A stretch of DNA of 64,000 nucleotides from Candidatus Aenigmatarchaeota archaeon (GTDB lineage: Archaea; Aenigmatarchaeota; Aenigmatarchaeia; JACPZZ01): NCBI GenBank assembly GCA_016180965.1, contig JACPAF010000001.1, positions 223,513 to 287,512 of the forward strand. The letters run 5' to 3'. The notes under the pieces were generated by a model that ran no database searches, was not told where the DNA came from, and saw only the letters and a list, made by a program, of their open reading frames with translations. Below are positions 1,356 to 59,188 of the stretch, one piece after another; the first letter of the stretch is position 1; each line of letters begins with the position of its first letter. Made by a program: the position numbers and the translations under genes.

Positions 1356-1537
1356 TAGCCCCGGGCGGATTCGAAATCGGCAGTGCGAAATTATTACACT
1401 TCAGCACTTCCGCCGTTTACGGGTGGCTTCTGACTGAAACATATGCTATTTAGCATGCATATGTTTCGAGCTACACCCAAAGCCCGCCGTGCTTTGCCGT
1501 GATTACAAAATCACTTTGGCCGCTGCACTACGGGGCT

Positions 1538-2700: not shown

Positions 2701-4368
2701 ATGAGAATTTTACAATTGCACGCCGATTCGGTCGAATATGAGCCTGTAAAAAAGGAAATAAAAACCGCTGAAGAGGTAGAGTTGAAGAAATATTCTTTCA
2801 GCGATGTGATGGTTGTTTTGACCGCGGTCGAGAAAGGCGATTCGAAGGAGACTGCTGATTGGGCGATTGATGACGCGAAAAAATTCATGGAACGAATGAA
2901 GATAAGCAAACTTTTGATCTATCCGTATGCGCATATCAGCTCGAATTTAGCTTCGCCATTTGATGCTATGGATCTGATACTCGAAATGGAAAAACATGCC
3001 AAACAGCTGGACATTGATGTTAGCCACGCGCCGTTTGGGTGGAACAAGCGATTTGCGATCTCTGTTAAAGGCCACCCGATGGCGGAGATGTCCCGTTCAT
3101 ACACGGGAAAACCTGTTGCGAAAGAGGTTAAGGTTGAAGTTAAACCCGTGGCACAGGAGCAGCCGCTGGAAAAACTGCCGGATAATGACCACCGTGTTCT
3201 TGGACAAAAGTTAAATTTATTCAGCTTCCAGGCGGAAGCGCCGGGCATGACGTTCTACCATCCCGGAGGTATGACAGTGCGCAATGAACTAATAAAATTC
3301 TCGCGCGAGAAACAAGCTGCGGCAGGCTACATAGAAATAATGACGCCCATAATCATGAAACGCAGCGTTTGGGAGCAAAGCGGGCATTGGGACCATTACA
3401 AGAACAATATGTTTTTCACAGAGACCGAGGATGCCCAATACGCGATTAAGCCGATGAACTGTCCTGGTGCGATACTCTATTTTAAAAACTCGAAACGCAG
3501 CTATCGCGAGTTGCCGATGCGCGTTTCGGAGTTCGGGATGATACATCGGAATGAGTTAAGCGGAACCTTGGGCGGGCTGTTCCGCGTGCGCGAATTCACT
3601 CAGGACGATGCGCATTTGTTCGTGCGTCCGGACCAGTTAACCGAAGAGTTAACTAATGTCATCGGCCTGGTCGAGGAATTTTACACTCAATTCGGGTTTG
3701 ATTTTCGCGTCGAGCTTTCTACGAAACCTGAAAACTCGATAGGTTCCGACGACCTGTGGTCGAAGGCTGAAGCGGCTTTGGAGGCTGCGATAAAGGAACG
3801 AAAATTAAATTATAAAATAAATCCGGGCGACGGCGCTTTTTACGGGCCCAAAATCGATTTCCATATCAAGGATTCCTTGGGAAGGACGTGGCAATGCGGG
3901 ACCGTGCAGGTCGATTTCTTCATGCCTCAGCGTTTCTCGATTTCCTACGTCGATGCCGGCGGGAAAGAAACTGTTCCGATTATCATACACCGCGCGATAT
4001 ACGGAAGCGTAGAAAGATTTTTGGGAATTTTAACGGAACATTACAACGGCTCGTTCCCTTTGTGGTTGGCACCAATCCAGGTTAAGGTTTTGCCCATCAC
4101 CGACAGCAACGTCGAATATTCGAAAAAAGTCGTCGACGCGCTGCGTTCTGTCGGGGTTCGCACGGAAGGCGATTACGAAAACCATACGCTGGATTATAAA
4201 ATACGGAATGCTTCTATGCAAAAAATATTTTATACTATAATAATCGGCAACAAGGAGGAGGAAAAGAAAACCATCGCTTTGCGCGGCCGTGACGGCAAGA
4301 CGCAATACGATGTTAATCTGGAAGAGTTTGTAAAAGAAATCCAATTCGAAATTTCGCGCAGGTCGTAG
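2701..4368 (+). CDS. thrS: threonyl-tRNA synthetase (archaeal type with N-terminal editing domain)
   Basis: 555 aa. Class II aaRS motifs (FRVREFTQDDAHLF, GPKIDFHIKDSLGRTWQCGTVQVDFFMPQRF), C-terminal anticodon-binding domain, archaeal-type N-terminus MRILQLHADSVEYEP. ATG at 2701 is in frame with the TTG at 2689. Confidence 0.9.
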   Translation: MRILQLHADSVEYEPVKKEIKTAEEVELKKYSFSDVMVVLTAVEKGDSKETADWAIDDAKKFMERMKISKLLIYPYAHISSNLASPFDAMDLILEMEKHAKQLDIDVSHAPFGWNKRFAISVKGHPMAEMSRSYTGKPVAKEVKVEVKPVAQEQPLEKLPDNDHRVLGQKLNLFSFQAEAPGMTFYHPGGMTVRNELIKFSREKQAAAGYIEIMTPIIMKRSVWEQSGHWDHYKNNMFFTETEDAQYAIKPMNCPGAILYFKNSKRSYRELPMRVSEFGMIHRNELSGTLGGLFRVREFTQDDAHLFVRPDQLTEELTNVIGLVEEFYTQFGFDFRVELSTKPENSIGSDDLWSKAEAALEAAIKERKLNYKINPGDGAFYGPKIDFHIKDSLGRTWQCGTVQVDFFMPQRFSISYVDAGGKETVPIIIHRAIYGSVERFLGILTEHYNGSFPLWLAPIQVKVLPITDSNVEYSKKVVDALRSVGVRTEGDYENHTLDYKIRNASMQKIFYTIIIGNKEEEKKTIALRGRDGKTQYDVNLEEFVKEIQFEISRRS

Positions 4369-4388
4369 AATCATTTGCATCGTAAACT

Positions 4389-4409
4389 GACGCATACCAA
4401 GTATGCGTC
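4389..4409 (+). repeat. hairpin GACGCATAC-caa-GTATGCGTC followed by TAGCTAC, terminator-like, downstream of thrS; member of the dispersed hairpin family
   Basis: Perfect 9 bp inverted repeat 21 nt after the thrS stop. Followed by the CTAGCTAC motif shared with other copies. Confidence 0.5.
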
Positions 4410-4620
4410 TAGCTACTAAACACATGATTCAGTCGGCAAATGGATTTGCCTGATTCTGCAAAAAAATAACGTTTCAGGCGAAAAAAGTTTATATAACAGT
4501 TTCACCAATTACTATCAATTAGGGAGAATTTCTCCTTGTGTAAACGGCGCTTCGCCGCCGGTTCTTGGTTTGCACTTTGACGTGACGGGGCAACCTATCG
4601 CGTTTGAGCGGGCGCAAGTA

Positions 4621-4770
4621 ATAGAAAACCATGGGTTTTCTATTTGAGAAATCCTTGACGGATTTCTCAATATTGCACTTTTGGGCTGTCTAACAAGTTT
4701 AGAACAGCCTGTCTATGTGTGAGCTCACAGGAAACTTCGTTTCCTGTGCACGAAAACCTTGTGGTTTTCG
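4621..4770 (+). promoter_or_regulatory. cluster of five consecutive stem-loops in the ftsZ upstream/leader region
   Basis: GAAAACC-atg-GGTTTTC (4624-4640); TTGAGAAATCC-ttgac-GGATTTCTCAA (4644-4670); TGTGAGCTCACA (4718-4729); CACAGGAAAC-ttc-GTTTCCTGTG (4726-4748); CGAAAACC-ttgt-GGTTTTCG (4751-4770). Confidence 0.4.
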
Positions 4771-4814
4771 TTGTTTCAAAAAAGCTCAACCAAAAGAGAA
4801 TGGAGGGGAATTGT

Positions 4815-5931
4815 ATGTCAATATTGGAGTCGGTTTTGAGTCGTGGGGCAACAGGCCACGGAAATGCGGAATCCGGAGTTACTATGAAAAACTTCGATTA
4901 CGAAAAGATAACTGAGCAGGAATTTGGCTTTAGCATGAAACGCGCCAGGATCGTTGTCGTTGGATGCGGTGGAGGCGGAACAAACTCTATCAACCGATTG
5001 GCAGAAATGGGCGTTGAAGGCGCAACCACAGTTGCGTTGAACACAGATGCAAAGCATTTGGCGGTCATAAAATCTGACAAGAAGATTTTGATTGGAAAAG
5101 AACTAACGCGCGGTTTGGGAGCAGGCGGTTACCCAGAGATCGGAAAGAAAGCGGCAGAGGAAAGCCGCACACAATTGAAAGAGTCGCTCACCGGCGCAGA
5201 CTTAGTTTTCTTAACAGCAGGGATGGGCGGAGGGACAGGAACAGGTTCCGCGCCTGTGGTTTCAGAGATAGCGAAGGAGATGGGTGCGATCGTTATCGGA
5301 GTTGTAACGATGCCTTTCAAGATTGAAGGCGCACGTATCGTAAAAGCTGAGAACGGTCTCGGAAAATTACGCGAAGCTTGCGACACAGTCATTGTCATTG
5401 AAAACGACAAGCTGTTAGAATTTGCAGGCGACTTGCCAATACAACAGGCTTTCGCTGTTGCAGACGAATTGATTGCGGGAATGGTCAAAGGCATAACCGA
5501 GACAATAACATTGCCGTCGTTGGTCAATTTGGACTACGCTGACGTGAAGGCGATAATGCATTCCGGCGGCGTTGCGGCGATTGGACTTGGATTTTCAAAC
5601 AGCTCTGACCGTGCTCGCGATGCGGTTACAAAAGCATTGCCCGTTGTTAGAAGTTGATTACCAAGGCGCTTCAGGCGCGTTGATACACATAACAGGCGGG
5701 CCAGACCTCAAATTGTCCGAAGTTAACCAGATAGGCGCAATAGTTTCGTCGCATTTGGATCCTTCGGCACAGGTTATCTGGGGCGCGCGAGTACAACCGG
5801 ATTTCCATGGCAAGGTCCAGGTAATAACAATAATAACAGGTGTGAACAGCCCGTACATACTCGGCCAGGTGCACAGAGAGGCTTCCCCGGCCTTGGGAAT
5901 AAGCGAGCTTGGCATAGACAAGATTGCGTAA
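4815..5931 (+). CDS. ftsZ: cell division GTPase FtsZ with apparent +1 frameshift at the C3 run 5640-5642
   Basis: GGAGGGGAA Shine-Dalgarno before ATG 4815. Tubulin signature GGGTGTG and T7-loop region run in frame 0 up to 5657. The C-terminal PLLEVDYQGASGALIHITGG...VITIITG continues in frame +1 (track ORF 5572-5931). Removing one C restores ...AVTKALPLLEVDYQ.... Confidence 0.85.
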
Positions 5932-6023
5932 GCTTTTTAGAAAAAAGCTTAACCAAAAAAAGTGCGATGAGGCGAAAGCTGAGCACGTTACTTATTTTTT
6001 AATTTGTTAATACGATTAGTGTT

Positions 6024-6152
6024 ATGGAAATAAGATTTAAGCCTGTCCAAGAGTTTTTGTCCAACGGGCGGAACAGGGCTATTTTTATCTTCTGGCTGCT
6101 GATGTTTTTAGTCGGCGTTTTTCTGGCGCTTAAGGTGATGGGGAGGATTTAA
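6024..6152 (+). CDS. small hydrophobic protein (42 aa, one TM helix), not in the ORF track
   Basis: ATG 6024 ... TAA 6150-6152. MEIRFKPVQEFLSNGRNRAIFIFWLLMFLVGVFLALKVMGRI. Stop overlaps the ATG of the next gene (TAATG), and a GGAGG sits inside its 3' end. Confidence 0.3.
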   Translation: MEIRFKPVQEFLSNGRNRAIFIFWLLMFLVGVFLALKVMGRI

Positions 6153-6388
6153 TGTCGGACAAGATACCAAGGGAAGAGGTTGTTAAATGGTTGGAGAGAT
6201 TGGATAAGAAACTAAGTTCAATTGAACCAACGGGTGCAGCAGGAGAAAAGGCTTTACTCAATGCGGAAGCTTATCGCGACGATTCCAAACATTGGTTAAA
6301 GCAGGAAAATTTGTTTTTAGCGTTTGAGGCGTGCGTTTATTCGTGGGCTATCGTAGAGACCGCAGAGAACTTGGGCGCGTTAATTTGA
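6152..6388 (+). CDS. small conserved hypothetical protein (78 aa)
   Basis: Intact ORF translationally coupled to the upstream small ORF. No recognisable catalytic motif. Confidence 0.4.
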   Translation: MSDKIPREEVVKWLERLDKKLSSIEPTGAAGEKALLNAEAYRDDSKHWLKQENLFLAFEACVYSWAIVETAENLGALI

Positions 6389-6468
6389 TTCTGGCAGTAG
6401 TTTATAGGAACGCCACTTCAAAAAGGCTTAAATAGTTATATCTAATATATAATCTAACTAGTGATGTT

Positions 6469-6690
6469 ATGGGCGAGACTCAGTCGACGGTAAAGAAATG
6501 GGGATCTTCGCTAGGTGTTGTTATACCTATCGAGGTTGTGAAACAGAAAGGTTTGCGTGAAGGAGATACGGTGGTGCTGGAGATAAGCAAAAAGAACACG
6601 ATCCGAGAGATCTTCGGATCCTTGAAGCATAACAAGTTAGACTCCCAAAAAATCAAAGATAATCTTAGAAAGGAGTGGAGCAAATGGTAA
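6469..6690 (+). CDS. vapB: antitoxin VapB (AbrB/MazE/SpoVT swapped-hairpin domain)
   Basis: KKWGSSLGVVIPIEVVKQKGLREGDTVVLEI is a typical SpoVT/AbrB fold. Overlaps the downstream PIN gene. Confidence 0.65.
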   Translation: MGETQSTVKKWGSSLGVVIPIEVVKQKGLREGDTVVLEISKKNTIREIFGSLKHNKLDSQKIKDNLRKEWSKW

Positions 6691-7049
6691 GGTTTTTTCT
6701 GGATACGTTTGCCATGTTTGAAATAACTAATGGAAATCCAAGATATGAAAAATACCTTAATTATGATTTTTCTACGTCAATGCAAAACCTCTACGAACTT
6801 TACTATAATTTATTGAAAACCAACGGCGAGGATTTCGCAAGGAATTGTTTTAATCGTTTCAGGCATTTCGTTGTCCAGATAAATGATTTGCATATATTCA
6901 ATGCCTCCAAGTTTAGGCTTGACAATTCGAGGCTAAATTTATCTTATGTCGATGCATTAGGTTATGCCATCGCAAAGGAAGAAGAGATCAAATTCCTTAC
7001 GGGCGATAAAGCCTTCAGAAATATGGATAACGTGGAATTTGTGCGCTAG
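6684..7049 (+). CDS. vapC: PIN-domain toxin VapC
   Basis: MVRFFLDTFAM (first acidic residue), LSYVDALGYAIAKEEEIKFLTGDKAFRNM (third and fourth Asp). Start could also be ATG 6675. Overlaps the vapB stop. Confidence 0.65.
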   Translation: MVRFFLDTFAMFEITNGNPRYEKYLNYDFSTSMQNLYELYYNLLKTNGEDFARNCFNRFRHFVVQINDLHIFNASKFRLDNSRLNLSYVDALGYAIAKEEEIKFLTGDKAFRNMDNVEFVR

Positions 7050-7504
7050 TTCAGATTTTTTAGAACTATGGCCAACGAGAGCGAAGCCCCAAATATAAAA
7101 CCGAAGAACATGCCGGATGCCAGCCAGATGAAATTGTTTGTCGAAAGATAGACTAAAATAAATCCGAACAGGACCGCTGCTATGTACGTCGGAAGCTCGT
7201 GACCGATTTTTTTATTTAGCATTTTTAGTCTTTGTTTCTGCTTTGTTTTGACGCTGTAGAATTTGCGGTAGAAGTTCCAGTTCCTGGAGAATATATGATG
7301 CCAATAAGCGCCGAAGAAAAAACCTACGGATATGCCGAGAAGAAAACCGGAGTAGATGCGCTCACCGGCTTCCGGATATAACGAAATTGCTTTTATGAAG
7401 AACAATGCGGCTATTACGGCGGTTAAAGCGTTAGCTCCGGGAGTCATGGTCCAGATAAAATTTTCGTGGTGAAGGATTCTGTGGATTTTGCGTACCAGGT
7501 CCAT
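7046..7504 (-). CDS. hypothetical integral membrane protein
   Basis: 152 aa with four predicted TM helices. No recognisable motif. Confidence 0.4.
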   Translation of the reverse strand: MDLVRKIHRILHHENFIWTMTPGANALTAVIAALFFIKAISLYPEAGERIYSGFLLGISVGFFFGAYWHHIFSRNWNFYRKFYSVKTKQKQRLKMLNKKIGHELPTYIAAVLFGFILVYLSTNNFIWLASGMFFGFIFGASLSLAIVLKNLN

Positions 7505-7555
7505 AATAATAATGACCTAATACCCAATTTAAGGCTTATAGTTCAAGGGAGTTTT

Positions 7556-8308
7556 ATGTTAACAATTGCGGGGTTGGGCGTCTGGGACGAGAACGACATT
7601 TCGCTGAGGTGTTTGGATGCTATTCGGGAAACGAACATAGTTTACGTTGAGTTGTACACGAACCTTTGGAATGGCGATGTTAATAAACTGGAAAAGCTGG
7701 CCGGAAGAAAAATAACGACCCTTCCGAGAAAAGAAGTTGAGGAAGGTTTCGGGAAGATTTTAGACGAAGCCAGGAACGAGAGCGTTTGCCTATTGGTTCC
7801 CGGAGACCCGCTTGCAGCGACGACGCACATGGATTTGGTAATCCAGGCGAGGAAGATGAATGTCGCGACAAGGATAATCCACTCGTCATCAATTTTTACA
7901 GCCGCCGCGGAGAGCGGGTTGCAGTTATACAAGTTCGGCAAGACCGCAACTATCCCTTTATCGGAGAAAACAGGCGGCGTGCTTCCGCAATCTGTGTATG
8001 ACACCATTAAAGGAAACCTAGAGTTGGGTTTGCACACTTTGCTGCTTTTGGACATAGACGTTGAAAATGACAAGAATCTCGGAGTTATGGATGCGTTGCG
8101 CGTTTTGCAGAGGCTGGATAAAGCTAAAATATTGGCAGATAAAAAGTTGGTTGTTGTGTCCAAACTCGGGTCTGCGGAGCAGGTGATAAAATACGGGTTT
8201 GCGGAGGAACTGTTGAAAGCTGGTTTCGGGCTACCGGCAGTCTTGATAGTTCCCGGAAAATTGCATTTCGCCGAGCAAGAGTTTGTTGAGTTCTTTAGTT
8301 TTAAATAA
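7556..8308 (+). CDS. dph5: diphthine synthase (Dph5, tetrapyrrole-methylase family)
   Basis: MLTIAGLGVWDENDISLRCLDAIRETNIVYVELYTN, LLVPGDPLAATTHMDL. ATG 7556 is preceded by AGGGAG and lies in frame within the track ORF starting 7466. Confidence 0.8.
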   Translation: MLTIAGLGVWDENDISLRCLDAIRETNIVYVELYTNLWNGDVNKLEKLAGRKITTLPRKEVEEGFGKILDEARNESVCLLVPGDPLAATTHMDLVIQARKMNVATRIIHSSSIFTAAAESGLQLYKFGKTATIPLSEKTGGVLPQSVYDTIKGNLELGLHTLLLLDIDVENDKNLGVMDALRVLQRLDKAKILADKKLVVVSKLGSAEQVIKYGFAEELLKAGFGLPAVLIVPGKLHFAEQEFVEFFSFK

Positions 8309-8337
8309 CCATCCGGATAAAATATTCTAAGGTACCA

Positions 8338-9132
8338 ATGGTCCAACAGGATAAGCTCGGCGTCGCGGAGAATTCTATAACCAGAGGATTGACTTTTCTT
8401 AGGAAAGGGGTTTATGACGAGGTTAGTGGAAATTCCAGGAAAGCTGTTAGAAATCCAGCGGACGTTTTCGGAGCCGCAACAAACCAGTATGTAACTGCTT
8501 ATAAAGCGTTAAATGAAAGCAAACCGGATAAAGATGCGCTGCAGCCTGTAATAGACAGGTACGACAAGGCGATGGCGGATCTGGATCATCTGAAAACAGA
8601 ATTAATTGATTATGCCAAAGAGGCTGCAAACAAAATTGGCCAAAGATCCATACTTTATGTTTCGGGCGTGGAAAAGCTGGTTGTCCAAGAGGAACGTGGC
8701 AGAAAAATTTTAGGCGTCCCTTATGCGCGCAGGCCCAAGGCTGCAAAGGTAAAGGACGCGATAGATAATGCCAGAGGCCAGATAGGCAACATCGTGATAA
8801 CCACAGAGGTCAAAGAAAACGGCCATGAAGTCGGCAGCGGAAAATCTTATATTTTACACTTGCGCGGAGATCTGGCATCGATCAGAAACAATCTCAAACG
8901 GGCTGCGCTGCTCGGCGATCCCGAGGAGAAATACATTACAGGAGTCGAGGGTGATGTGGCACAGGATATGAAATCCATTGACGATTTGGACAAATACCAC
9001 AGGAACCTTTTGTCGGAGAGGTTTAAAGCTGAACAAAAGAAAGCCGAGGATAAAAGGCTGGCGAAACTTGAAAAAGAAAGGCAGCGCGACCTTCGCAAAA
9101 ACCTTAAAGAACTAAGAAAGAGGAAATGGTAA
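8338..9132 (+). CDS. paralog family protein 1 (unknown function; basic C-terminal tail)
   Basis: 264 aa. Shares the core YVSGVEKLVVQEERGRKILGVPYARRPKAA with the next gene. Lys/Arg-rich C-terminus. Confidence 0.6.
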   Translation: MVQQDKLGVAENSITRGLTFLRKGVYDEVSGNSRKAVRNPADVFGAATNQYVTAYKALNESKPDKDALQPVIDRYDKAMADLDHLKTELIDYAKEAANKIGQRSILYVSGVEKLVVQEERGRKILGVPYARRPKAAKVKDAIDNARGQIGNIVITTEVKENGHEVGSGKSYILHLRGDLASIRNNLKRAALLGDPEEKYITGVEGDVAQDMKSIDDLDKYHRNLLSERFKAEQKKAEDKRLAKLEKERQRDLRKNLKELRKRKW

Positions 9133-9824
9133 TTTTTATGAGTATTGAACTTGCAGAGGCGGACGCGAGGCGCGGTCTGGAATATATCAGGAAGGGTAAA
9201 AGCGGAAAATTGAAGGATCCTGAGTACGTTTTACAGAAGGCTGCAGAGGCTTATACGAAAGCTTCTAATGGTTTGGTTGAACCTGCGGCAGATGCGTCGA
9301 AAGATGAGAAAAAAACCTACACCAATGTTCGTTCACTGGTTGATATTTTACAAAGTGAGCTGGCTTCTTATGCAAAAGGGAAAGTTGGCGGGCTGACAAA
9401 AGAGGCTGGCGGATATGTTTCTGGAATAACAAAATTGGTTAAACAAGAGGAACGCGGTAAACGGATTTTAGGGGTTCCATACGCGAAAAGGCCGTCCGTT
9501 GCTTATGTTTCCGGAAAGATCGAGCAGGGTAAAACCTATGTAACCCAAGCTTTGGGAAAGGTTGGGGCAATGAGAAAAATTTTGGAAAATGAGGCGTTGT
9601 TGAAACCGGCCGAGAAAAACATGCTAAATGAAGCAAAGGGTGCGCTTGAGCAGGTCAATACCAAGCTTGGTGAATTGGAAACGCAGAACCAGAACGCGGG
9701 CAAGGCGGTTAAACCAAAAACCAAGAAGAAAGATGATGGCAAGGGCGGATTGCATTTACCACACGTAAAATTACCCAGTTTTAAGCGAAAACCCAAGGGT
9801 TGGCAGTCTCGCGGTGGGTTTTAA
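9126..9824 (+). CDS. paralog family protein 2 (unknown function; ends ...SRGGF)
   Basis: YVSGITKLVKQEERGKRILGVPYAKRPSVA core. Start overlaps the stop of protein 1 (ATGGTAA); alternative ATG at 9138. Confidence 0.6.
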   Translation: MVIFMSIELAEADARRGLEYIRKGKSGKLKDPEYVLQKAAEAYTKASNGLVEPAADASKDEKKTYTNVRSLVDILQSELASYAKGKVGGLTKEAGGYVSGITKLVKQEERGKRILGVPYAKRPSVAYVSGKIEQGKTYVTQALGKVGAMRKILENEALLKPAEKNMLNEAKGALEQVNTKLGELETQNQNAGKAVKPKTKKKDDGKGGLHLPHVKLPSFKRKPKGWQSRGGF

Positions 9825-9869
9825 ATACTTATCTGGTTTTAAAATTAGGATAGGAGAGGTTGATTGAAA

Positions 9870-10550
9870 ATGGCTGTAGATTATAGTAAGATTGTCGATA
9901 GTTTGAATAACGCGCTTGATAGGCTTGGTAGTTTAGGTTATGTTCCGGGCAAGGCGCCAAAAACGAAGATCGCAAGCGATCCTGTTAGGATGCTTCTTAG
10001 TGGCGTTGACGCATACACTTCTGCAAAAACAGATTTGGGCGCGCTTCCAGTGGTTGGAGTAGCAGGTGCGAAAAAAGCTGACGTTGACAGGTACAACGCT
10101 GCAGTTCAGGTTTTGGACACTGTCGGAGCGGGTTTAAGATCCGCATTCAAGGATTATGTACAGGCTGTGGGCCAAGGATTGGAAGGAAATGCAGCTTCGT
10201 TGAAAAGACAGGTTGAAAGCGAGCGCAAAGGTCCTATGAGGATTTTACCGAGATCGTCTTCATACCTTGTTAGCAACGGTTTAGACGATGCTAAGACAGC
10301 TGTCGGTTACGCGAAAGCTGAAGTTGCGGCTGTAAGAACAGCTTTTGAAGGTGCGCCTGACCTGTTGAAACCACAAGACAAAACTTACATTTCAGAGCTT
10401 GAAAAAAGATTGGGTAACATTGCGTCGTCTTTGACAAAAGAGGAAACAAGACACAACGACAAGGTCGACAGGGAAGCTGTGAAAGCGGACAGGAAAGCCT
10501 GGGAAAAGCTTTTGAAAGGAAAGCCAAAGGGCAGCCGCGGCGGTTTCTAA
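9870..10550 (+). CDS. paralog family protein 3 (unknown function; ends ...KGSRGGF)
   Basis: ESERKGPMRILPRSSSY core, ELEKRLGNIASSL, C-terminal KGKPKGSRGGF. TAGGAGAGG Shine-Dalgarno before ATG 9870. Confidence 0.6.
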   Translation: MAVDYSKIVDSLNNALDRLGSLGYVPGKAPKTKIASDPVRMLLSGVDAYTSAKTDLGALPVVGVAGAKKADVDRYNAAVQVLDTVGAGLRSAFKDYVQAVGQGLEGNAASLKRQVESERKGPMRILPRSSSYLVSNGLDDAKTAVGYAKAEVAAVRTAFEGAPDLLKPQDKTYISELEKRLGNIASSLTKEETRHNDKVDREAVKADRKAWEKLLKGKPKGSRGGF

Positions 10551-10581
10551 TTTTTTAATTAACCGGGCGCAATCGCCAACT

Positions 10582-10613
10582 GAAGCATACCGTATATTGT
10601 ATCGGTATGCTTC
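10582..10613 (+). repeat. hairpin GAAGCATACCG-tatattgtat-CGGTATGCTTC followed by TAGCTG and a T-rich tract; terminator-like
   Basis: Perfect 11 bp stem 32 nt after the stop of paralog 3. TTTTATTTTTATT follows at 10634-10646. Confidence 0.55.
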
Positions 10614-10714
10614 TAGCTGTTTGCGCCCAAGTTTTATTTTTATTCCAATTAGTTGTTTTTCTATAATTTTTTAGAAATGAAAATTAATTTAACTCTGAGA
10701 CGCCTTTGTTAATT

Positions 10715-11194
10715 ATGGTAAAAGAAAATTACGAGAGAAAATTACAGGCATTGAATGGTGCGGTTGATTCTGCAAAAAGAAGCGTTGACCAGGGCAGATA
10801 CGCAGCTGCTATAGGTTATGTTGACCAGGCAAGAGGCATGATGAAAGGCGGTAATTACAGGGGTCTTCTGACGGAAAAACACGCGATAGTAAACGGCGAG
10901 TTAAATCTAATAATGAGGCACGCACGCGACCAGGTCCGCGACCGCCTGGAGCAAGGCTATAAAACCGTTGACAATGAGCTGGCTAGAATTTCAAAGGGCG
11001 GTATGCCAACACCCAAGGCCAGAAGAACTTTGGCGGAAATGAGCGGATATGTTGACAGCCTCACAGGAACAGATATGCCCAAATCGATTTCCAAAGAATT
11101 TACGCCTGACAAAACGCGGGTGGACAAATTAAAAAAAGAGCTTGAGGCTTTGGCAACGTCGAAAGGCGGAAAAATAGACTGGGCGAAACCATGA
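10715..11194 (+). CDS. possible divergent member 4 of the paralog family (unknown function)
   Basis: 160 aa, helical and basic, similar architecture but only weak similarity to proteins 1-3. Confidence 0.4.
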   Translation: MVKENYERKLQALNGAVDSAKRSVDQGRYAAAIGYVDQARGMMKGGNYRGLLTEKHAIVNGELNLIMRHARDQVRDRLEQGYKTVDNELARISKGGMPTPKARRTLAEMSGYVDSLTGTDMPKSISKEFTPDKTRVDKLKKELEALATSKGGKIDWAKP

Positions 11195-11225
11195 ATCATA
11201 CATTTGTATGATTCGGCATCTTATT

Positions 11226-11975
11226 TTATTTTTCTATTTTTTCCATCAAAGCCTCCATTTTTTCAACGAACCGTGTCGCCTTTTCAACCATCTCGTCGAT
11301 TTTTTCCGGCGTGACGAGCTTCAGTTCACCGTGTTCCAGTTTTTTCCACGTCTTGATGACGTCTTCGTAATATTTTACGTATTCCGGCGACAATTTCCTT
11401 TTTCGTACGAAATGTATTCGCAACTGGTCAGGGACATTTTTTGGCGTCGGCGGCGACACGCCGATGCTTAACAGCGGAGCTTGCGCCGCGTCCACGACTG
11501 CGGACGACAATGCGTCCATTATTGAGATTGTGTGGATACGTTCTATGCGCAACAAACGCAAAGGCGATTGCTGTATCAAGGATTTCATAGCCTCTTTCGT
11601 TCCGGGCACGCGGCCTTCGAGCAATAATTTTTTCAGCGGTAAAAAGAATCCTGACGGGTCGTATATCGGAATGCCGTCGCGTATTTCCGTGAACGTGACC
11701 GGAGAACCGTGCCGGATGAGTTCCCAATAATCCGATAGTTTGTAAAATATCAAGTCAGTTTCGCCGCGCAGTTTTAGCAGCTTGGAGATTTTTTGCGCTT
11801 CCAGTTTTATTTCGTTGGTTGTGATTGAGTCAACTTGGTTGGTGTCGTCGAGAAGGAATATCAACGTGTCCTCTTTTCCCTCTTCGGAGGACGAAGTCAT
11901 CCAGATAGACTTTATTATGGTGGGATATTTTTTCGTTAATTTATCGATCAGTGATTTTGTTTTTTTCGTGTTCAT
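11226..11975 (-). CDS. nucleotidyltransferase-fold protein, catalytically degenerate paralog of the upstream gene
   Basis: Aligns along its length with 11972-13120 (IYDPSGFF..LLEGR..PLRLLR..HGELK). The hG[GS]...DhD motif is replaced by MTSSSEEGKEDTLIF. Start overlaps the upstream gene's stop (ATGA). Confidence 0.55.
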   Translation of the reverse strand: MNTKKTKSLIDKLTKKYPTIIKSIWMTSSSEEGKEDTLIFLLDDTNQVDSITTNEIKLEAQKISKLLKLRGETDLIFYKLSDYWELIRHGSPVTFTEIRDGIPIYDPSGFFLPLKKLLLEGRVPGTKEAMKSLIQQSPLRLLRIERIHTISIMDALSSAVVDAAQAPLLSIGVSPPTPKNVPDQLRIHFVRKRKLSPEYVKYYEDVIKTWKKLEHGELKLVTPEKIDEMVEKATRFVEKMEALMEKIEK

Positions 11976-13120
11976 TTTTTAGCCTCTTTCAACAACGATT
12001 CCAAATTCTTGGCATACAGGCGCGACGTGTAAACGTCTTTTTCGGTCACTTCGTTTAATTTGTCATTGTCGGATGCGTGCTTCATCAATTTTATTTTTTT
12101 CAGCAGTTCCAAATAGCCTTTCGACACCAGGCCCGTGTTAACCAACTCTTTTTCAACAAAATGCAGGATGTTTTTATCATTTACTCGTATTCCACGTTTT
12201 TTCAGTATGTTCCTGCAGGCTGTGAACGCCACATCATTGGATTCTTCGATCATTTCCTTTTTCTTTTCTTTTTCCAGCATGGAAAAAATCGTGTCCATCA
12301 TGTAGATGAAATCTTTTGCTTTCACAATCCAGGAATCGATTTCTTTCGCTGTTATTTTTGTCAATTCCCCATGGTCGATTTTTCTTGTCACTGCGTAAAA
12401 TTCATCCACCAAGTCGGCGTAAAATCCTGGAAGTATTTTTTTTGCGACGAAATTTTTTCGCAGCGCCGCGCCGACGTTTTTTGCGGACGGCGGCGCAATT
12501 CCATAGAACATCAATACCGCCTGCCCGGCTTCGACCATTGCGAAAAGCAAATCTGCGGTTATGTCTTCCAGGAATATTTTCCTGACGTCTTCCAGGCGCA
12601 GAGGCGCGCGCTGCATCAACATTTGCGACCTTTCAAATGTGCCGCCCATGCGACCTTCTTTTAATAATCTGCTTAACGGCTCTACATAACCTGATGGATC
12701 ATACACGGGCATCGCGTCGCGCATTGATGTGAATACCCACGGCTCGCCTGAGCGCAGCAAATCCCACCAATCTGTTAACCTGCGAACGGGCTGGAAATGT
12801 ATATTGATTTTTGTTTTTTCCTTTACAGCATCGTTTATTTCGGATATTTTTGCGCTCATTGCGGATAATTCAGCAGCGGATATATCCGTCGTGGCATCGT
12901 CGACCAAAGTCATTACGTCGATGTCCGATGTCGGTTTTGCTTCGCCGCGGGCGAATGAACCGTATAACCAGATAACCTTTATCTTATTTCCGTATATTGA
13001 AAGTATTTTAGAACAAGCCTCTTTGATGGCGTCGATAGCGGAATATGCCATAATCAATAATGAATGACGGGATTTTAATACCTGAGCAAGAAACCCGCGG
13101 GCATCGCCTGATTGAAGCAT
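11972..13120 (-). CDS. Pol-beta-superfamily minimal nucleotidyltransferase with conserved helical C-terminal domain
   Basis: VIWLYGSFARGEAKPTSDIDVMTLVDD is a canonical GS...DxD NTase motif. 382 aa. The N-terminal 23 codons overlap the hairpin at 13114-13136, so the true start may be ATG 13051. Confidence 0.6.
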   Translation of the reverse strand: MLQSGDARGFLAQVLKSRHSLLIMAYSAIDAIKEACSKILSIYGNKIKVIWLYGSFARGEAKPTSDIDVMTLVDDATTDISAAELSAMSAKISEINDAVKEKTKINIHFQPVRRLTDWWDLLRSGEPWVFTSMRDAMPVYDPSGYVEPLSRLLKEGRMGGTFERSQMLMQRAPLRLEDVRKIFLEDITADLLFAMVEAGQAVLMFYGIAPPSAKNVGAALRKNFVAKKILPGFYADLVDEFYAVTRKIDHGELTKITAKEIDSWIVKAKDFIYMMDTIFSMLEKEKKKEMIEESNDVAFTACRNILKKRGIRVNDKNILHFVEKELVNTGLVSKGYLELLKKIKLMKHASDNDKLNEVTEKDVYTSRLYAKNLESLLKEAKK

Positions 13121-13136
13121 ATCAAAGGTATGCTTC
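13114..13136 (+). repeat. hairpin GAAGCATA-tcaaagg-TATGCTTC followed by TAACTCC; family member
   Basis: 8 bp perfect stem. Overlaps the annotated 5' end of the minus-strand NTase ORF. Confidence 0.4.
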
Positions 13137-13140
13137 TAAC

Positions 13141-14523
13141 TCCTTACCGCCCGCCAGATGAATTGCACACAGTTACTATTATTCCATGTTAACTATATTT
13201 TTCTATAGGAACCTCACATAAAGGGTGTTTTAAGTGCACATTCGAAAAGTATTGATTCATGAAAGAATCGAAAAATAATATCAGAATGTACCGTTATAGA
13301 ATATACCCTTCTCAAGAACAACGTAAAAGGCTTGATTCTCAACTCGCATCATGTAAAGAATTATACAACCTGCTTCTTCAAAAATGTAAAGAAGATTACA
13401 AGGAAAAAAGCATTTCCGTAAACCGAAAAATGCTCTACAAACTTGCCAAACAATTCACAGACAATGATGAACGTTATTCAGACGTACATTCCCAGGTCCT
13501 CCAAAACGTAGCTGACAGACTAGTAAAATCTTACAAAAACTATTTTAGGCGTATTAAAGAAAAGAAATCCGGCAAGAAGATAAAAGTCGGCTTTCCTAGA
13601 TTCAAAAAATTCTATTCAAGCATAACCTATCCGCAGAGCGGGTTTAATCTAGCCGCGAATCGTCTTTTTGCTTCGAGGATAGGCAATATTCCCATCGTAA
13701 CCGAAAGATTGCCTCAAGGAAAGACAAAAACACTAACAATCAGAAGAAAACCGTCGGGCAAGTGGTTTGTTTTTTTCAGTTCGTTTGTTGATACTCCTGA
13801 GACCGAAAACACAGTTAAATACAACAAAATCGGCATAGACATGGGCATTGAAAACTTCGCAACTTTATCGGACGGCACAACAATAGAAAATCCGAGATTC
13901 CTAAGAAAATCGGAAGACACGCTAGCAAAATACCAGCGCAGAGTGTCCAGAAAAGCGAAAGGTTCTAACAGAATAAAAGCAAAAATAAAAGTTGCGAGAA
14001 TACACGAAAAAATAACCAACCAAAGAACAGATTTCCTTCACAAAACAAGTAAAATGCTGACGGAAAAATACAGCTTCATAGCTGTTGAAAAACTAAATGT
14101 CAGTAACATGGTAAAGAACCATAATCTAGCGAAAAGCATATCCGATGCTTCGTGGAACCAATTCACTCGGATGATTGGCTACAAGGCTTCAAGTGCTGGT
14201 TGCCAACTCGTTTTTGTGAATCCACGAAACACATCGCAAATATGCAGCGGATGCGGAAACACAGTAAAGAAAGAATTAAGCGACAGGTGGCACGAATGCG
14301 ATTTATGCGGTTTGTCGCTGCACAGAGACCACAATTCCGCATTGGAAATATTAGACAAAGCCACCGACGGACTGTCGGGAAGTAACGCCTTTGGAGACAG
14401 TGTAAGACCTTCTGTAAAGAAGGTCGTGGTCGATGAATCAGGAACTACACGTGTTGAGATAGACGCTGGAAACCCAGCACTTTAGTGCGGGGAGGATGTC
14501 ATTAATGTGCAAGCTTTTATCCG
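13141..14523 (+). mobile_element. IS200/IS605-family element carrying tnpB only (IS1341-like); ends not defined
   Basis: Single tnpB gene without tnpA, flanked by about 120 nt upstream and about 40 nt downstream of non-coding DNA. Boundaries were placed at the flanking genes. Confidence 0.4.
13259..14485 (+). CDS. tnpB: TnpB (IS605 OrfB, RuvC-like RNA-guided endonuclease)
   Basis: 408 aa. MYRYRIYPSQEQ N-terminus, RuvC-I GIDMGIENFATL, RuvC-II IAVEKLNVSNM, zinc finger CSGCG...CDLCG, RuvC-III RDHNSALEI. Confidence 0.9.
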   Translation: MKESKNNIRMYRYRIYPSQEQRKRLDSQLASCKELYNLLLQKCKEDYKEKSISVNRKMLYKLAKQFTDNDERYSDVHSQVLQNVADRLVKSYKNYFRRIKEKKSGKKIKVGFPRFKKFYSSITYPQSGFNLAANRLFASRIGNIPIVTERLPQGKTKTLTIRRKPSGKWFVFFSSFVDTPETENTVKYNKIGIDMGIENFATLSDGTTIENPRFLRKSEDTLAKYQRRVSRKAKGSNRIKAKIKVARIHEKITNQRTDFLHKTSKMLTEKYSFIAVEKLNVSNMVKNHNLAKSISDASWNQFTRMIGYKASSAGCQLVFVNPRNTSQICSGCGNTVKKELSDRWHECDLCGLSLHRDHNSALEILDKATDGLSGSNAFGDSVRPSVKKVVVDESGTTRVEIDAGNPAL

Positions 14524-17659: not shown

Positions 17660-18151
17660 ATGGTTTCGGATATTTTTACGCCTTTGGTCGGAAATTTAAA
17701 CAACCTCGGTTTTTACAAATTCGTCCTTCCGTGGCTGTTTACGTTGGCCGTTGTATATGGTGTGCTTTTGAAAGTCAAAGTTTTTGGAACTGACCAGCAA
17801 AAATCGTTGACCGCTGTCATAGCTATTGTCGCGGCGTTTTTCGTTGTTAATTACACGCCCGCTGGGTTTGCGTTAGACGGTTTTTTCACTCAAGTCTTTG
17901 GTGTGGGCATTTTGATACTCACCGGCATTTTTGTCGTACTTCTGGTTATGGGTTTAGTCGGGTTAAAAGGCGAGGATATATTCAAGGCTGAGAACCTGAA
18001 AACTGGCGGCGGCATGGCTGTTGTATTATTAGTAGCATTCATAATTTTCCTGTTCTTTACGATCGGCGGAATACATATAGCTTCGGATCAGTTATCTCTG
18101 ATAGCCGTGATGATATTCATGATTGTCGCGCTGGTTTTCATAGCTAAATGA
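17660..18151 (+). CDS. membrane protein family B member 2
   Basis: LGFYKFVLPWLFTLAVVYGVLLKVKVF. Confidence 0.5.
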   Translation: MVSDIFTPLVGNLNNLGFYKFVLPWLFTLAVVYGVLLKVKVFGTDQQKSLTAVIAIVAAFFVVNYTPAGFALDGFFTQVFGVGILILTGIFVVLLVMGLVGLKGEDIFKAENLKTGGGMAVVLLVAFIIFLFFTIGGIHIASDQLSLIAVMIFMIVALVFIAK

Positions 18152-18215
18152 CCGTACGGGATGAAAAAAAAACAAAATCGATAATTTGTATAAATAAAAC
18201 TATGGAAGAATTTCA

Positions 18216-18761
18216 ATGGCAACTTTTGATTTCATCGCACTGCAAAACACGTTAAAAGCAATGGGCTTTTACGACTTTGTTTTGCCTTGGCTGTTAGCGT
18301 TTGCGATCGTGTTCGGCATTTTACAAACAGTTAAAATTTTTAAGAAAGGTGATGCGTCAAACACGTCCGTCGACGCTGTTGTTTCGCTAGTTGTTGCGTT
18401 CTACCTGACAATATTCACTCCTTATTCCGGATTCTTGTCGTCGTTCTTCAGTAAATTATTCGGAAGCTCAATAATAATGCTGTCGAGCGTTCTCGTACTG
18501 TTAATGTTCGTGGGAATATTCGGGTTTAACATAAAAGATCTTCTGTCAAAGAAGGACGGTGAGAAGACAGAGCTCACGCCGATTGGTATAGCAGGTTTAA
18601 TAGGCGCGTTTATCGTCGCAGCAATACTTTTCATCAATGCCACTTCGGGCGTGTTTTCTTTCGGCGGTTCGGACATTTTAAACGGCGATACGCTGACAGT
18701 TCTTTTGTTTTTAGGAATAATCGGCGCGGTTATATGGTTTGTTGTAAAGGGCGCGAAATAA
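18216..18761 (+). CDS. membrane protein family B member 3
   Basis: MATFDFIALQNTLKAMGFYDFVLPWLLAFAIVFGILQTVKIFKKG. About 75% identical to member 4. Confidence 0.55.
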   Translation: MATFDFIALQNTLKAMGFYDFVLPWLLAFAIVFGILQTVKIFKKGDASNTSVDAVVSLVVAFYLTIFTPYSGFLSSFFSKLFGSSIIMLSSVLVLLMFVGIFGFNIKDLLSKKDGEKTELTPIGIAGLIGAFIVAAILFINATSGVFSFGGSDILNGDTLTVLLFLGIIGAVIWFVVKGAK

Positions 18762-18794
18762 GGTTTTAAATACGTCGGAGAATAATCGTAGATA

Positions 18795-19388
18795 ATGGCG
18801 ACGTTTGATTTTATTGGTTTGCAAAACACCCTACGTTCGATGGGTTTCTACGATTTTGTTTTGCCGTGGCTGTTGGCTTTTTCAATTGTTTTCGGCATTT
18901 TGCAGACGGTCATGATATTCAAGAAAGGCGCGGACAACACAAAATCAAACACGTCTGTTGATGCTGTCATAGCGCTTGCCGTTGCTTTTTACCTGACAAT
19001 ATTCACGCCTTATTCCGGATTCTTGTCGTCTTTTTTCAGCAAACTATTCGGCAGTTCAATCATAGTTTTATCAGGAATTTTAATGCTGTTAATGTTCGTG
19101 GGCATATTCGGATTTAATTCCCAAGAATTGTTCGGTGGAACTAAATCTAAAGCGGCGATAACCATAGTCGCGTTGATACTTGCCGGTTTGTTTTTGATAA
19201 ATGCAAGCTCCGGCGTGTTCTCGTTCGGCAACGGCCAGTTAGTTAACGGCGAAACGCTGACGGTTATCGCGTTTTTCGGAATGATCGCTGCGATAATATG
19301 GTTTGTGGTAAATGACGGGAAAACAAAAGAGAAAGACGAGGATGACAAGACTACGAAAATAGACCCAAAAACGGGCAAGCCTATATAG
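18795..19388 (+). CDS. membrane protein family B member 4 (recent tandem duplicate of member 3)
   Basis: MATFDFIGLQNTLRSMGFYDFVLPWLLAFSIVFGILQTVMIFKKG. Confidence 0.55.
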   Translation: MATFDFIGLQNTLRSMGFYDFVLPWLLAFSIVFGILQTVMIFKKGADNTKSNTSVDAVIALAVAFYLTIFTPYSGFLSSFFSKLFGSSIIVLSGILMLLMFVGIFGFNSQELFGGTKSKAAITIVALILAGLFLINASSGVFSFGNGQLVNGETLTVIAFFGMIAAIIWFVVNDGKTKEKDEDDKTTKIDPKTGKPI

Positions 19389-33666: not shown

Positions 33667-34242
33667 ATGAATAACCTTTTTAGAAAAAAGCTTAACCAAA
33701 AAATGAAAGGAGACGTGTGGTACGTTTCGACTTTCTTTTTTCTCGTTTCGCTCTTTTCCGTAACAATGATAATGCTGTTTTCAATGAGCATCGCGCGTCT
33801 GATTGTCGGAAATTTGATAGATTACACGGTCCACGTGAGCTTTTTGGATTTTTCCCTGAACACGGAAAACGCTTTGTTGTCGGGGATGGAAATTAAAATG
33901 GACCCGAACGACACTTCGATGAAGACCATATTATCAAATGCCGCGTTCCAATGGAGCGGGGATCCTGGTTGGGATAAAAATGTTTTTGCGGGCGGAAAAA
34001 TGTACGATGCGGCCCAGCGTTCAAAGGACATCTTTGATAAATTGGTGCAGGGGCCGTACATTTTTGAATTGCGAAAGCAATTCGATGCGTCCGACGCGAG
34101 AAGGATAATATTTGCCGAGCGTAATGCGGAGTCGATTAAAAGCGATCCGGAAGTTGCTGAGATGGAATTTTATTTGCCGTATCCGGCGTGCGGCGGTTGC
34201 AGTAAAATTGCAGTTTACAGACTGTATTCAACGGTGAAATAA
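33667..34242 (+). CDS. pilin-like protein
   Basis: MNNLFRKKLNQKMKGDVWYVSTFFFLVSLFSVTMIMLFSM: basic residues, KG, then a hydrophobic helix. Confidence 0.45.
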   Translation: MNNLFRKKLNQKMKGDVWYVSTFFFLVSLFSVTMIMLFSMSIARLIVGNLIDYTVHVSFLDFSLNTENALLSGMEIKMDPNDTSMKTILSNAAFQWSGDPGWDKNVFAGGKMYDAAQRSKDIFDKLVQGPYIFELRKQFDASDARRIIFAERNAESIKSDPEVAEMEFYLPYPACGGCSKIAVYRLYSTVK

Positions 34243-35615: not shown

Positions 35616-35915
35616 ATGAAGCGCAAGGGTATCTCTTTACCAATAGACATGCTCGTTATCTTGGCGATAGCTGTCATTATTCTAATTGCTGTTGTGGCTG
35701 TTTTCATGGGCGTATGGAGTCCTTTTGCGACGAACCAACAGGCAAGGGCGAATTTCAACAAAGAATGCCAGGTTTTAGTTAATACGGGCTGTACGCAAAC
35801 TCCTTCGCTGGCGTTATGCAAAGCGGCTAATGGGATTGTTTTGAACAAAGAAACTTGCGATAGTGATCCAGACAGACTTGCGGTCAAGAAAGGATGCGGC
35901 TGCCCGGGATTGTGA
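35616..35915 (+). CDS. type IV pilin (candidate major pilin), C-terminal GCGCPG
   Basis: MKRKGISLPIDMLVILAIAVIILIAVVAVFMGVW...KKGCGCPGL. Tandem paralog of the next gene. Confidence 0.65.
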   Translation: MKRKGISLPIDMLVILAIAVIILIAVVAVFMGVWSPFATNQQARANFNKECQVLVNTGCTQTPSLALCKAANGIVLNKETCDSDPDRLAVKKGCGCPGL

Positions 35916-35919
35916 TCTT

Positions 35920-36315
35920 ATGGTTAAAAGAAAAGGTATTTCGCTCCCAATTGATATGTTAGTTGTTTTGGCAATCGCTGTCATAATTTTAATCGCGATC
36001 GTTGCCGTTTTCATGGGTGTCTGGAATCCATTTTCGACGAACCAGCAATCACGGGCGAATTTCAACAAGGCTTGCCAGATATTAGTCAACACCGGCTGCG
36101 CAGGAGATCCGTCAGTGGATTTGTGCAAAGCTGCGAATGGAATTGTTTTGAATAAGGACACTTGCGATAGTGATCCGGATAAACTTGCGGTTAAAGTCGG
36201 GTGCGGCTGTCCGGGCGTTTCCGGAACAACGGCAACTGCTCCGCCGGCTGGTGACAGTGGTTCTCCAGGCGCACCGGGTCCGGGAGATGTGGGTGACAGC
36301 GGGCCTTCTAGATAA
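35920..36315 (+). CDS. type IV pilin paralog with Gly/Ser/Pro-rich C-terminal tail
   Basis: MVKRKGISLPIDMLVVLAIAVIILIAIVAVFMGVW...VGCGCPGVSGTTATAPPAGDSGSPGAPGPG. Confidence 0.65.
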   Translation: MVKRKGISLPIDMLVVLAIAVIILIAIVAVFMGVWNPFSTNQQSRANFNKACQILVNTGCAGDPSVDLCKAANGIVLNKDTCDSDPDKLAVKVGCGCPGVSGTTATAPPAGDSGSPGAPGPGDVGDSGPSR

Positions 36316-40071: not shown

Positions 40072-40096
40072 CGGTTAGAATCACATCGAGGAAACT

Positions 40097-40170
40097 GAAA
40101 CATACGCTAGACAGTTAGAAGCATACCGATACAGTATACGGTATGCTTCAGTCTACGATGCGTATGTTTC
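40097..40170 (+). repeat. nested double hairpin: outer GAAACATACGC/GCGTATGTTTC, inner GAAGCATACCG-atacagtata-CGGTATGCTTC; followed by TAGCAACCC
   Basis: Perfect 11 bp inner and outer stems. Lies between convergent genes (Nudix + strand, SIS-like - strand). Confidence 0.55.
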
Positions 40171-40223
40171 TAGCAACCCGTGCTTCAGTTTATGGCGGTA
40201 TGATTCCAGTTGCAATGTCGACC

Positions 40224-40254
40224 GAAGCATATGCATACGAATAGCATATGCTTC
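40224..40254 (+). repeat. hairpin GAAGCATATGC-atacgaata-GCATATGCTTC
   Basis: Perfect 11 bp stem, 54 nt after the nested hairpin. Confidence 0.55.
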
Positions 40255-40263
40255 TCGTTACGA

Positions 40264-44254: not shown

Positions 44255-44276
44255 AATCATAGCTGCTTGAAACATT

Positions 44277-45195
44277 CTAGTTACCCGTTAGCCACGAACT
44301 TAACGTTTTGCGATTTCCCGGGGATTTTTTCTTAATGTTTTCAAGAACTTTTTCCACGCGCTCCTCGGAGAATGAATGCTCGGCGATCATCATGTTTTTT
44401 ATCCCTTCTTCGTTTGGTTTTGACCACCTTATCTCGTAGTTGTCTTCTACTGGTGGTTTGAGGAAAAAATCCAAGACCATTTGGGGGTCGTACGGGCTGA
44501 AATCTATTTCCATGAATATTTCGTCCGCACTTTTTGTGCGGACCAGTTGCAGCGCTTTTTTCGGCCCTATTCCTTTGATACCGCCGGGATTGAAATCTGT
44601 GCCGACCAGAATACCCAGCACGATTAATTTTTCCTGGGTCAGGCCGAGAGAGTTTAAATTTTTCCCCAATTCTATCATCTCCGGCTTCACTTCAATATAA
44701 GTTTCCTTGTTCGGCAGCTTTTTTCTTCCCGTTATTGTTAAATTCCGTACGAGTCTTGGAGACCCGAATAGGAGGGAATCGTAATCCTGCGACCCGGTCG
44801 CGAATGCGTCTCCGCGCTTTGTCATGTGTGCGGCCTGCGCTTCGGCTTCGCTCGGCGCCTGCATTATTGGAATTCCCATCAATTCAAGCAATTTTTTGGA
44901 TTCGGATACCATGTCCTTTGTCAATCTTGACGTTTTTGAATGCCGGCGGCTTGCCATCGAAAACGAAGATTGGCATTAGCCCGGCTTCGACAAATTTGGA
45001 AGTGCGGTAAAACAATCCGGACAGGTGCGAGGTTACGCGCCCGGCAGAATCCATTAAGGGGGTCCCATCGGGCTGCCTTATACTTGATAAAAACTGATAC
45101 AGTGTGTTGTAAGCGTCAATCGCTATCGTCTTGTTAACCAGGTTATCCAGTTCTATTTGTGTACGTTCCATTATGTTCGATATTTGTACGCCCAT
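44277..45195 (-). CDS. fen1: flap endonuclease FEN-1, disrupted: internal loss of the helical-cap segment and a frameshift at a 5-nt A/T run
   Basis: N-terminal [36 protein letters not shown]...[12 protein letters not shown] runs in one frame (track ORF 44884-45273). ...[32 protein letters not shown]...[11 protein letters not shown] continues in another (44277-44957). Only about 6 aa separate FDGKPP from LTKDMV, versus about 45 in M. jannaschii FEN-1. Confidence 0.8.
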
Positions 45196-46591: not shown

Positions 46592-46643
46592 TTGATCACC
46601 GTCTGAATCATGCCGTATGCAGCATCGGCACGATTCTAGTTAC

Positions 46644-57541: not shown

Positions 57542-57575
57542 TATGTTTGCGGGTTAATTAAACAAGGCGAAACCT

Positions 57576-58678: not shown

Positions 58679-58717
58679 AAATGTTTATAAGTATCTGGCC
58701 GACAATTAATAATTAAG

Positions 58718-59179: not shown

Positions 59180-59188
59180 ACACTAAAA

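Follow-up and report, generated by a model that had tools for sequence, protein, structure and literature searches.

The 64-kb stretch of Candidatus Aenigmatarchaeota DNA analyzed here (hereafter the window) contains seven strong and two weak copies of a small hairpin, listed in Table 1 together with the structures in which they lie. Four related perfect hairpins had been reported in the initial annotation at 1436-1467, 4389-4409, 10582-10613 and 13114-13136, and all four are indeed present and related to one another, their arm pattern GAAGCATA...TATGCTTC occurring four times in the window against an expectation of 0.00. To these can be added strong copies at 40118-40149, 40224-40254 and 46605-46636, the first (plus strand) and the last (minus strand) of which were found by a hairpin scan requiring the same flanks, and weak ones at 11193-11214 and 44259-44287. 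A repeat finder aligned 10572-10620 with 40111-40159 as reverse complements, 90% identical over 49 nt, and BLAST paired 1436-1475 with 40216-40254, and 4366-4398 with 40140-40172. Two occurrences of the tail motif had been described as lacking a strong stem: that at 46633-46646 in fact adjoins the 11-bp hairpin at 46605-46636, and that at 44274-44287 does belong only to a weak member of the family (E=1.8).

Table 1. Members of the hairpin family in the window, and the tRNA gene, intron, composites and host hairpin associated with them.
Feature	Position	Strand	Description
tRNA-Gln(UUG) gene, three introns	1356-1537	-	D-loop intron 1495-1516; 37/38 intron 1425-1476; T-loop intron 1376-1409
BHB intron, tRNA-Gln 37/38, 52 nt	1425-1476	-	4-bp helix CUUU/GAAG; bulges GG/G and CC/A
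Family hairpin L1	1436-1467	-	Stem GAAACAUAUGC; 49.5 bits; core of tRNA-Gln anticodon-loop intron
Outer hairpin enclosing L2	4368-4430	-	Arms GAAUCAUGUG and GCAAAUGAUUC; begins at ThrRS stop codon
Family hairpin L2	4389-4409	-	Stem GACGCAUAC, 3-nt loop; 47.9 bits; inner level of nested pair
Host terminator-like hairpin	10565-10646	+	GGGCGCA 10565-10571, TGCGCCC 10622-10628, then T-tract
Family hairpin L3	10582-10613	-	11-bp stem GAAGCAUACCG, 10-nt loop; 69.4 bits; inserted unit ~10573-10620
Probable small-loop member	11193-11214	+	GAAUCAUAC-AUUU-GUAUGAUUC; E ~0.05
Family hairpin L4	13114-13136	-	32.9 bits; outer stem GCGGGC 13097-13102 / GCCCGC 13149-13154
Nested composite round L7	40078-40206	+	Outer hairpin 40097-40107/40160-40170; outermost arms 40078-40088/40196-40206
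Family hairpin L7	40118-40149	+	71.2 bits; innermost of three nested levels
Family hairpin L9	40224-40254	+	GAAGCAUAUGC-AUACGAAUA-GCAUAUGCUUC; 37.9 bits
Weak/degenerate member L6	44259-44287	-	7-bp stem CUAGAAU/AUUCUAG; 10.1 bits, E=1.8
Family hairpin L5	46605-46636	-	11 bp, stem GAAUCGUGCCG; 52.8 bits; between Zn-ribbon gene and aEF-1beta gene

The contexts of the copies are varied. Location directly after a stop codon, as originally proposed for most of them, applies to the hairpins at 4389, 10582, 11193, 44259 and 46605; it does not apply to the one at 1436, which lies within a tRNA intron, or to L4, which is found between divergent genes, 122 nt ahead of a TnpB ORF. L9 belongs to the type of hairpin found upstream of tRNA genes in related genomes. 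At 11193, the hairpin shares its first two bases with the TGA stop of ORF 10706-11194 (11192-11194), and the UAG stop of ORF 44277-44957 (44277-44279) coincides with the CUA/G junction of weak copy L6. The window also harbors other repeats. A second small repeat, unrelated to the hairpin family, is present as 97% identical 32-nt copies at 5929-5960 and 33672-33703 (TAAsCTTTTTAGAAAAAAGCTTAACCAAAAAA) and contains the palindrome AAGCTTTTT-A-GAAAAAAGCTT. Small paralogous genes that have diverged from one another form tandem arrays at 58223-60695 (repeat families D1, D3 and D6, encoding archaeal type IV pilin-like N-terminal domains) and at 17660-19388 (repeat families D4, D5, D8 and D10), and a 284-nt direct tandem duplication with 76% identity, at 35625-36215, spans overlapping ORFs on both strands.

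The repeat unit consists of a perfect hairpin of 21-32 nt, typically GAAGCAUACCG, a 10-nt AU-rich loop and CGGUAUGCUUC, and measures about 45-50 nt overall with its short conserved flanks, ..AGCUA on the 5′ side and AGUY.. on the 3′ side. On the minus strand, the four originally reported sites share the flank consensus ...AGCUA-hairpin-AGU(U/C)..., which on the plus strand reads ACU-hairpin-UAGCU, and the G.U pairs in the helices adjoining the stems fit the minus strand at these four copies. The same consensus recurs in 22 copies from relatives that were not chosen by their flanks. The conserved 3′ box of the initial annotation is real next to hairpins, but the tail motif TTCTARYT taken alone is present at chance frequency in the window (11 observed, 9.05 expected); the box is one of the two flanks of the repeat unit, and not a termination signal.

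A covariance model was built from an alignment (A1) combining the copies from the window with those from relatives. It scores the seven strong hairpins of the window at 33-71 bits, all of them belonging to its training set, and has no other strong match in the 64 kb, its weak candidates being those at 11193-11214 and 44259-44287; in 235 kb of relatives' DNA it yields 94 matches, counting both strands. Pairing is preserved in 99.2% of the stem cells of A1, and 6 of the 11 pairs have changed on both sides, i.e. in compensatory fashion. It should be kept in mind that such pairing does not prove an RNA function, since the sequences were partly chosen by both arms, and since DNA palindromes can keep their arms matched without selection on RNA. 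Across the carrier genomes, stems and loops keep their lengths and the loops much of their sequence, and in a comparison of the window with one relative (locus L002) the 32-nt core is the same at 31 of 32 positions, as opposed to 65-82% for the flanking DNA. Such conservation above the level of the surroundings could point to a function in the cell that depends on the sequence, as opposed to selfish spread. Rfam covariance models gave no gathering-level match at any copy, the nearest being a chance-level snoRNA match (E=1.5). Readings of the internal loops as K-turn, C/D-box or H/ACA motifs were discarded, as no tandem G.A or ACA box fits and Rfam is negative.

To assess the distribution of the element, 185,579 genomes, one per species, were searched with a strict 22-position pattern. 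Of the 46 loci recovered, 30 belong to just five MAGs, four of them assigned to Ca. Aenigmatarchaeota and obtained from groundwater, and one labeled “uncultured archaeon”; the remaining matches, 16 in number, occur singly in scattered genomes, mostly bacterial, and for these the chance estimate is roughly 15. A metagenome scan contributed nine more loci, and a protein-based metagenome scan for orthologous loci found none. The 32-nt hairpin is present many times in five MAGs and essentially nowhere else. That the relatives are Ca. Aenigmatarchaeota MAGs bears out the archaeal origin assumed in the initial annotation.

Comparison of orthologous sites in these genomes shows that copies have been gained and lost between close relatives, and that the new DNA occupies the apical loops of pre-existing hairpins, be they a terminator-like hairpin, a K-turn, tRNA arms or older copies of the element itself. 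One case concerns L3. Relative locus L028 is syntenic with positions 3629-11527 of the window, at 84-90% identity, and at the L3 site it reads GGGCGCA-AAC-TGCGCCC-AAATTTTATTTTTATT, an empty hairpin with no insert. In the window, the same hairpin, which starts 15 nt past the stop of ORF 9864-10550, carries 47 extra nt within its AAC apical loop. The reverse situation is seen at 5975/5976: the window is empty there, and in L028 the GAAA loop of a K-turn hairpin accommodates a composite of two levels and 66 nt. This intergenic hairpin (5962-5986, plus strand; GUGC GAU GA GGC GAAA GCU GA GCAC), with a C-box-like GAUGA and a D-box CUGA, is conserved in L028 and is likely to be an L7Ae-binding site. 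In the tRNA-Ser variable arm, the loop of GGGC-GUAA-GCCC is empty in L051 and contains a 76-nt composite in L016; the corresponding tRNA-Ser(GCU) genes extend over 7095-7180 in L051 and over 6873-7033, with the nested hairpin, in L016, and the insert shows no recognizable BHB. At a fourth site, 57564-57576, the window is again empty and L049 holds a 115-nt three-level composite; the empty site here has no obvious hairpin.

Nesting of copies inside the loops of other copies is common and reaches three levels, and the number of levels varies between orthologous sites. The L2 site after the ThrRS gene has none in L055, two in the window and at least three in L028; the composite round L7 has fewer levels at the orthologous L002 site; and the tRNA-Gln intron has a simple hairpin in the window and a nested one in L008. 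The loop may also differ in orientation between orthologous copies whose flanks are identical, being flipped between L011 and L014, and the occurrence of both orientations between the same flanks points to events at the DNA level. No consistent target-site duplication was seen at the four filled/empty junctions, where the boundaries of the insert vary. The suggestion in the initial annotation that the hairpins resemble REP or MITE elements is supported, the family being multi-copy, lineage-specific and insertion-polymorphic between close relatives.

The other half of that suggestion, according to which the hairpins act as genome-specific transcription terminators, appears very unlikely, and the same holds for a role as 3′-end stabilizers of mRNA. 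Five structures in the window start 0-32 nt from a stop codon (at 4368, 10582, 11193, 44259 and 46605), and L3 is followed by a T-tract, as would be expected of an intrinsic terminator. However, that T-tract and the GC-rich stem belong to the older host hairpin into which L3 was inserted, and both exist in L028 without the element; where the flanks of the other copies were read (by eye only), they show no T-tract. Furthermore, copies reside inside a tRNA-Gln intron (1436), upstream of genes, and 13 nt before the start of the aEF-1beta gene within an operon, and both orientations are found. The element is not itself a terminator.

Some copies are associated with tRNA genes. Of the 30 pattern-matching copies in the five MAGs, 5 lie inside tRNA genes and 6 within ~35 nt of a tRNA end, and those in tRNA genes lie within, or constitute, BHB introns. 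In the window, the tRNA-Gln gene was missed in its unspliced form by both ARAGORN and Rfam; in silico removal of its three introns leaves a 74-nt sequence which ARAGORN folds as tRNA-Gln(UUG). L1 forms the core of the canonical intron at 37/38, whose BHB was read by hand, with the helix formed by C32-U35 and GAAG. In L008, the orthologous intron retains both GAAG and the bulges, and has an extra family hairpin within the loop of the first. The L008 gene has no D-loop intron, and its T-loop intron is almost unchanged. Just after the tRNA-Gln gene, at 1310-1345 on the minus strand, there is a 9-bp hairpin, ACGUGUGCC...GGCACACGU, with equivalents of different stem sequence in L042 (ACACGCGCC...GGCGCGUGU) and L008; possibly, it serves as a tRNA terminator or processing hairpin.

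In the tRNA-Thr(CGU) gene of L027, a single family unit of 37 nt makes up the entire D-loop intron. Its BHB is near-canonical (exon GUUG with intron CGGC, bulges GU/A and AC/A), the element's own flanks ACU and AGU provide the helix next to the bulges, and removal of this unit together with a 15-nt canonical intron restores a normal tRNA. An intron at T-loop position 59/60 in L014 follows the same design, ACU-A-stem...stem-AGU-CGAG-UC. Such cases raise the question of whether the element is in essence a mobile BHB intron, or intron progenitor, which enters tRNA loops and is excised by the splicing endonuclease, with intergenic copies representing strays. The hairpin is common to introns at different tRNA positions, and two nested composites, in L011 and L014, fold round CGUAA/UUACG with a 3-nt bulge on each strand. 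Such sharing of a hairpin resembles the intron transposition put forward for Thermoproteales, cited in PMC4033280.

We nevertheless regard this explanation as rather unlikely. Two 3-nt bulges, a 4-bp helix and restoration of the RNA are found together for the L1-containing intron and the L027 D-loop unit, and are not found for L3, L4, L5 or the family in general; neither L3, nor the insert in the K-turn hairpin, nor that in the tRNA-Ser variable arm forms a BHB. A BHB design common to all copies had to be rejected, as complementarity between exon and intron sides of the helix is seen in 9 of 43 copies, compared with 8.9 expected from shuffled partners. The composites have a central helix of 5 bp rather than 4, both orientations relative to the tRNA occur, and an RNA-level route would require reverse transcription, which nothing here supports. 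Hand parsing and a constraint search likewise revealed no acceptor/T-arm framework in L2, L3 or the region 40072-40263, and the idea that these are hidden multi-intron tRNA genes was dismissed.

A related scenario, to which we would give no better odds, is that the hairpin acts as a selfish source of new tRNA introns, which it would create by inserting into the single-stranded D, anticodon, variable and T loops of tRNA genes. Its flanks (ACU-A...AGU plus 4 nt plus 2 nt) would complete a BHB with the local exon, and the splicing endonuclease would then excise the inserted unit.

Copies are also positioned in front of tRNA genes. Among the 22 relatives' tRNA genes examined, 12 are preceded by a family hairpin whose end lies 8-11 nt from the tRNA 5′ end, a frequency biased by the selection of loci that carry the element. 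Seven of the 12 hairpins have a 9-10-nt loop, and this always reads AUACnnnnA in the sense of the tRNA. This spacing and the constant orientation of the loop hint at a role or a constraint. One could imagine the element as a module of tRNA genes that functions as RNA or DNA, either a 5′-leader hairpin or a promoter whose AT-rich loop would lie ~26 nt upstream of the tRNA 5′ end, with the copies elsewhere arising by secondary spread. The base preceding +1 is usually a pyrimidine, and the core sequence is strongly conserved between species, both of which agree with such a module. Yet the two tRNA genes of the window have no upstream hairpin and possess ordinary TATA-like boxes, and orthologous tRNA genes differ in the presence of the hairpin (L030 versus L041, and the window versus L008). 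Most hairpin-bearing tRNA genes have an AT-rich TATA-like box 20-40 nt upstream of the first hairpin, so that the hairpins are probably within the transcribed 5′ leaders, and not in the promoter. The loops would in any case make poor TATA boxes, and we judged the use of the hairpin loop as a TATA box unlikely in view of the AT-rich boxes found upstream. Given also the manner in which the loci were selected, we consider a primary role in tRNA genes improbable. The conservation of the core and the fixed spacing are still compatible with a cellular function or with concerted evolution.

The proximity of L4 to a TnpB ORF brings to mind another possible origin, in which the element would stem from an IS200/IS605 transposon moved by a Y1 transposase, either as one of its end hairpins or as a PATE-type derivative. 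The ORF in question (13259-14485, plus strand) encodes an IS200/IS605 OrfB with OrfB_IS605, HTH and Cas12f-like TNB domains, and has a hairpin, AGCAC-UUUA-GUGC, at its stop codon; a weak Rfam match to HgcC (18.8 bits, E=5.6) at 14404-14510 overlaps the 3′ end of tnpB, which may represent an omega-RNA region. IS200/IS605 elements carry hairpins at their ends and transpose as single-stranded DNA. However, the hairpin at the 3′ end of tnpB is unrelated to the family, no end hairpin is shared with tnpA or tnpB, and in ~270 kb no other copy is located near a TnpB. No TnpA-like ORF was found either, although this check is a weak one. The link to TnpB/IS605 was accordingly rejected, and we attach hardly any likelihood to this derivation. 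Searches of the window and of ~270 kb of DNA from relatives detected no transposase, RAYT or TnpA, the test for TnpA and RAYT being weak, and no multi-copy or recurrent ORF accompanies the copies, whose neighbors include only lectin-like, ParA-like and HAD proteins.

Among known mobile elements, the closest parallels are offered by bacterial REP/REPIN sequences mobilized by RAYT, which are also short (20-40 nt), extragenic, high-copy, non-coding palindromes with a conserved flank, often found after genes. REPs are thought to move as hairpin-forming single strands. With seven strong copies in 64 kb and several per MAG, the archaeal element is likewise a short extragenic multi-copy palindrome, but it lacks the GTAG/CGTC tag adjoining the stem, the 5′ flank in A1 being ..CAGCUA and the consensus AGCUA; only a handful of copies, L1 and L2 among them, have a GUAG 3 nt away from the stem, and no RAYT was found in the window and ~270 kb of relatives' loci. 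In addition, its copies nest in each other's loops instead of forming inverted doublets, and also occur inside tRNA genes as introns. With prokaryotic MITEs, such as the Rickettsia palindromic elements found in genes, it shares a non-autonomous nature, presence/absence polymorphism and tolerance within functional genes, but it is far smaller, it has neither terminal inverted repeats with a target-site duplication nor an identifiable parent IS, and what it targets appears to be a structure, the hairpin loop, and not a sequence. Hairpin-forming repeats are likewise entered by palindrome-targeting insertion sequences (IS110/IS1111 in REP or attC, IS1397 in BIME loops); those, however, are autonomous, kilobase-sized and encode a transposase, as opposed to a non-coding unit of 45-50 nt.

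The remaining comparison is with the archaeal BHB tRNA introns. In these, similar intron sequences occupy several tRNA positions, and such introns are enriched in lineages with broad-specificity endonucleases, including DPANN (PMC4033280, PMC5829648). The introns discussed here agree with these in their positions (D-loop, 37/38 and T-loop 59/60) and in being removable at BHB motifs; they differ in that most copies of the element are outside tRNA genes and without a BHB, and in that the intron core is a genome-wide repeat.

Overall, we favor the interpretation, with a probability of roughly 0.65, that the hairpins are copies of a mobile palindromic repeat, non-coding and non-autonomous, that is specific to the Ca. 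Aenigmatarchaeota lineage (DPANN archaea). Insertion of such a repeat would be directed by structure, into single-stranded DNA loops, and would be performed by an enzyme acting in trans. Copies in tRNA genes would persist because the splicing endonuclease removes them, and the others because 3′ UTRs, 5′ leaders and intergenic DNA would tolerate them. If its targeting indeed depends on structure and not on sequence, the element would represent an unusual kind of mobile DNA.

The family has practical consequences for annotation as well. The tRNA sets of DPANN archaea are often not fully predictable (PMC5829648), and the hairpins account for the failure of standard tRNA finders to detect genes in these genomes, as in the case of ARAGORN and Rfam with the tRNA-Gln gene at 1356-1537; the family could also be used as a marker for disrupted tRNA genes. 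For the question of how archaeal tRNA genes acquire introns at many positions, the element provides a concrete and testable intron-donor candidate, since one and the same repeat is seen as a loop insertion polymorphism, as the core of a canonical intron and as a complete D-loop intron. Should the intron-creating scenario prove true, it would offer a living example of intron gain in archaeal tRNA genes, nested introns included.
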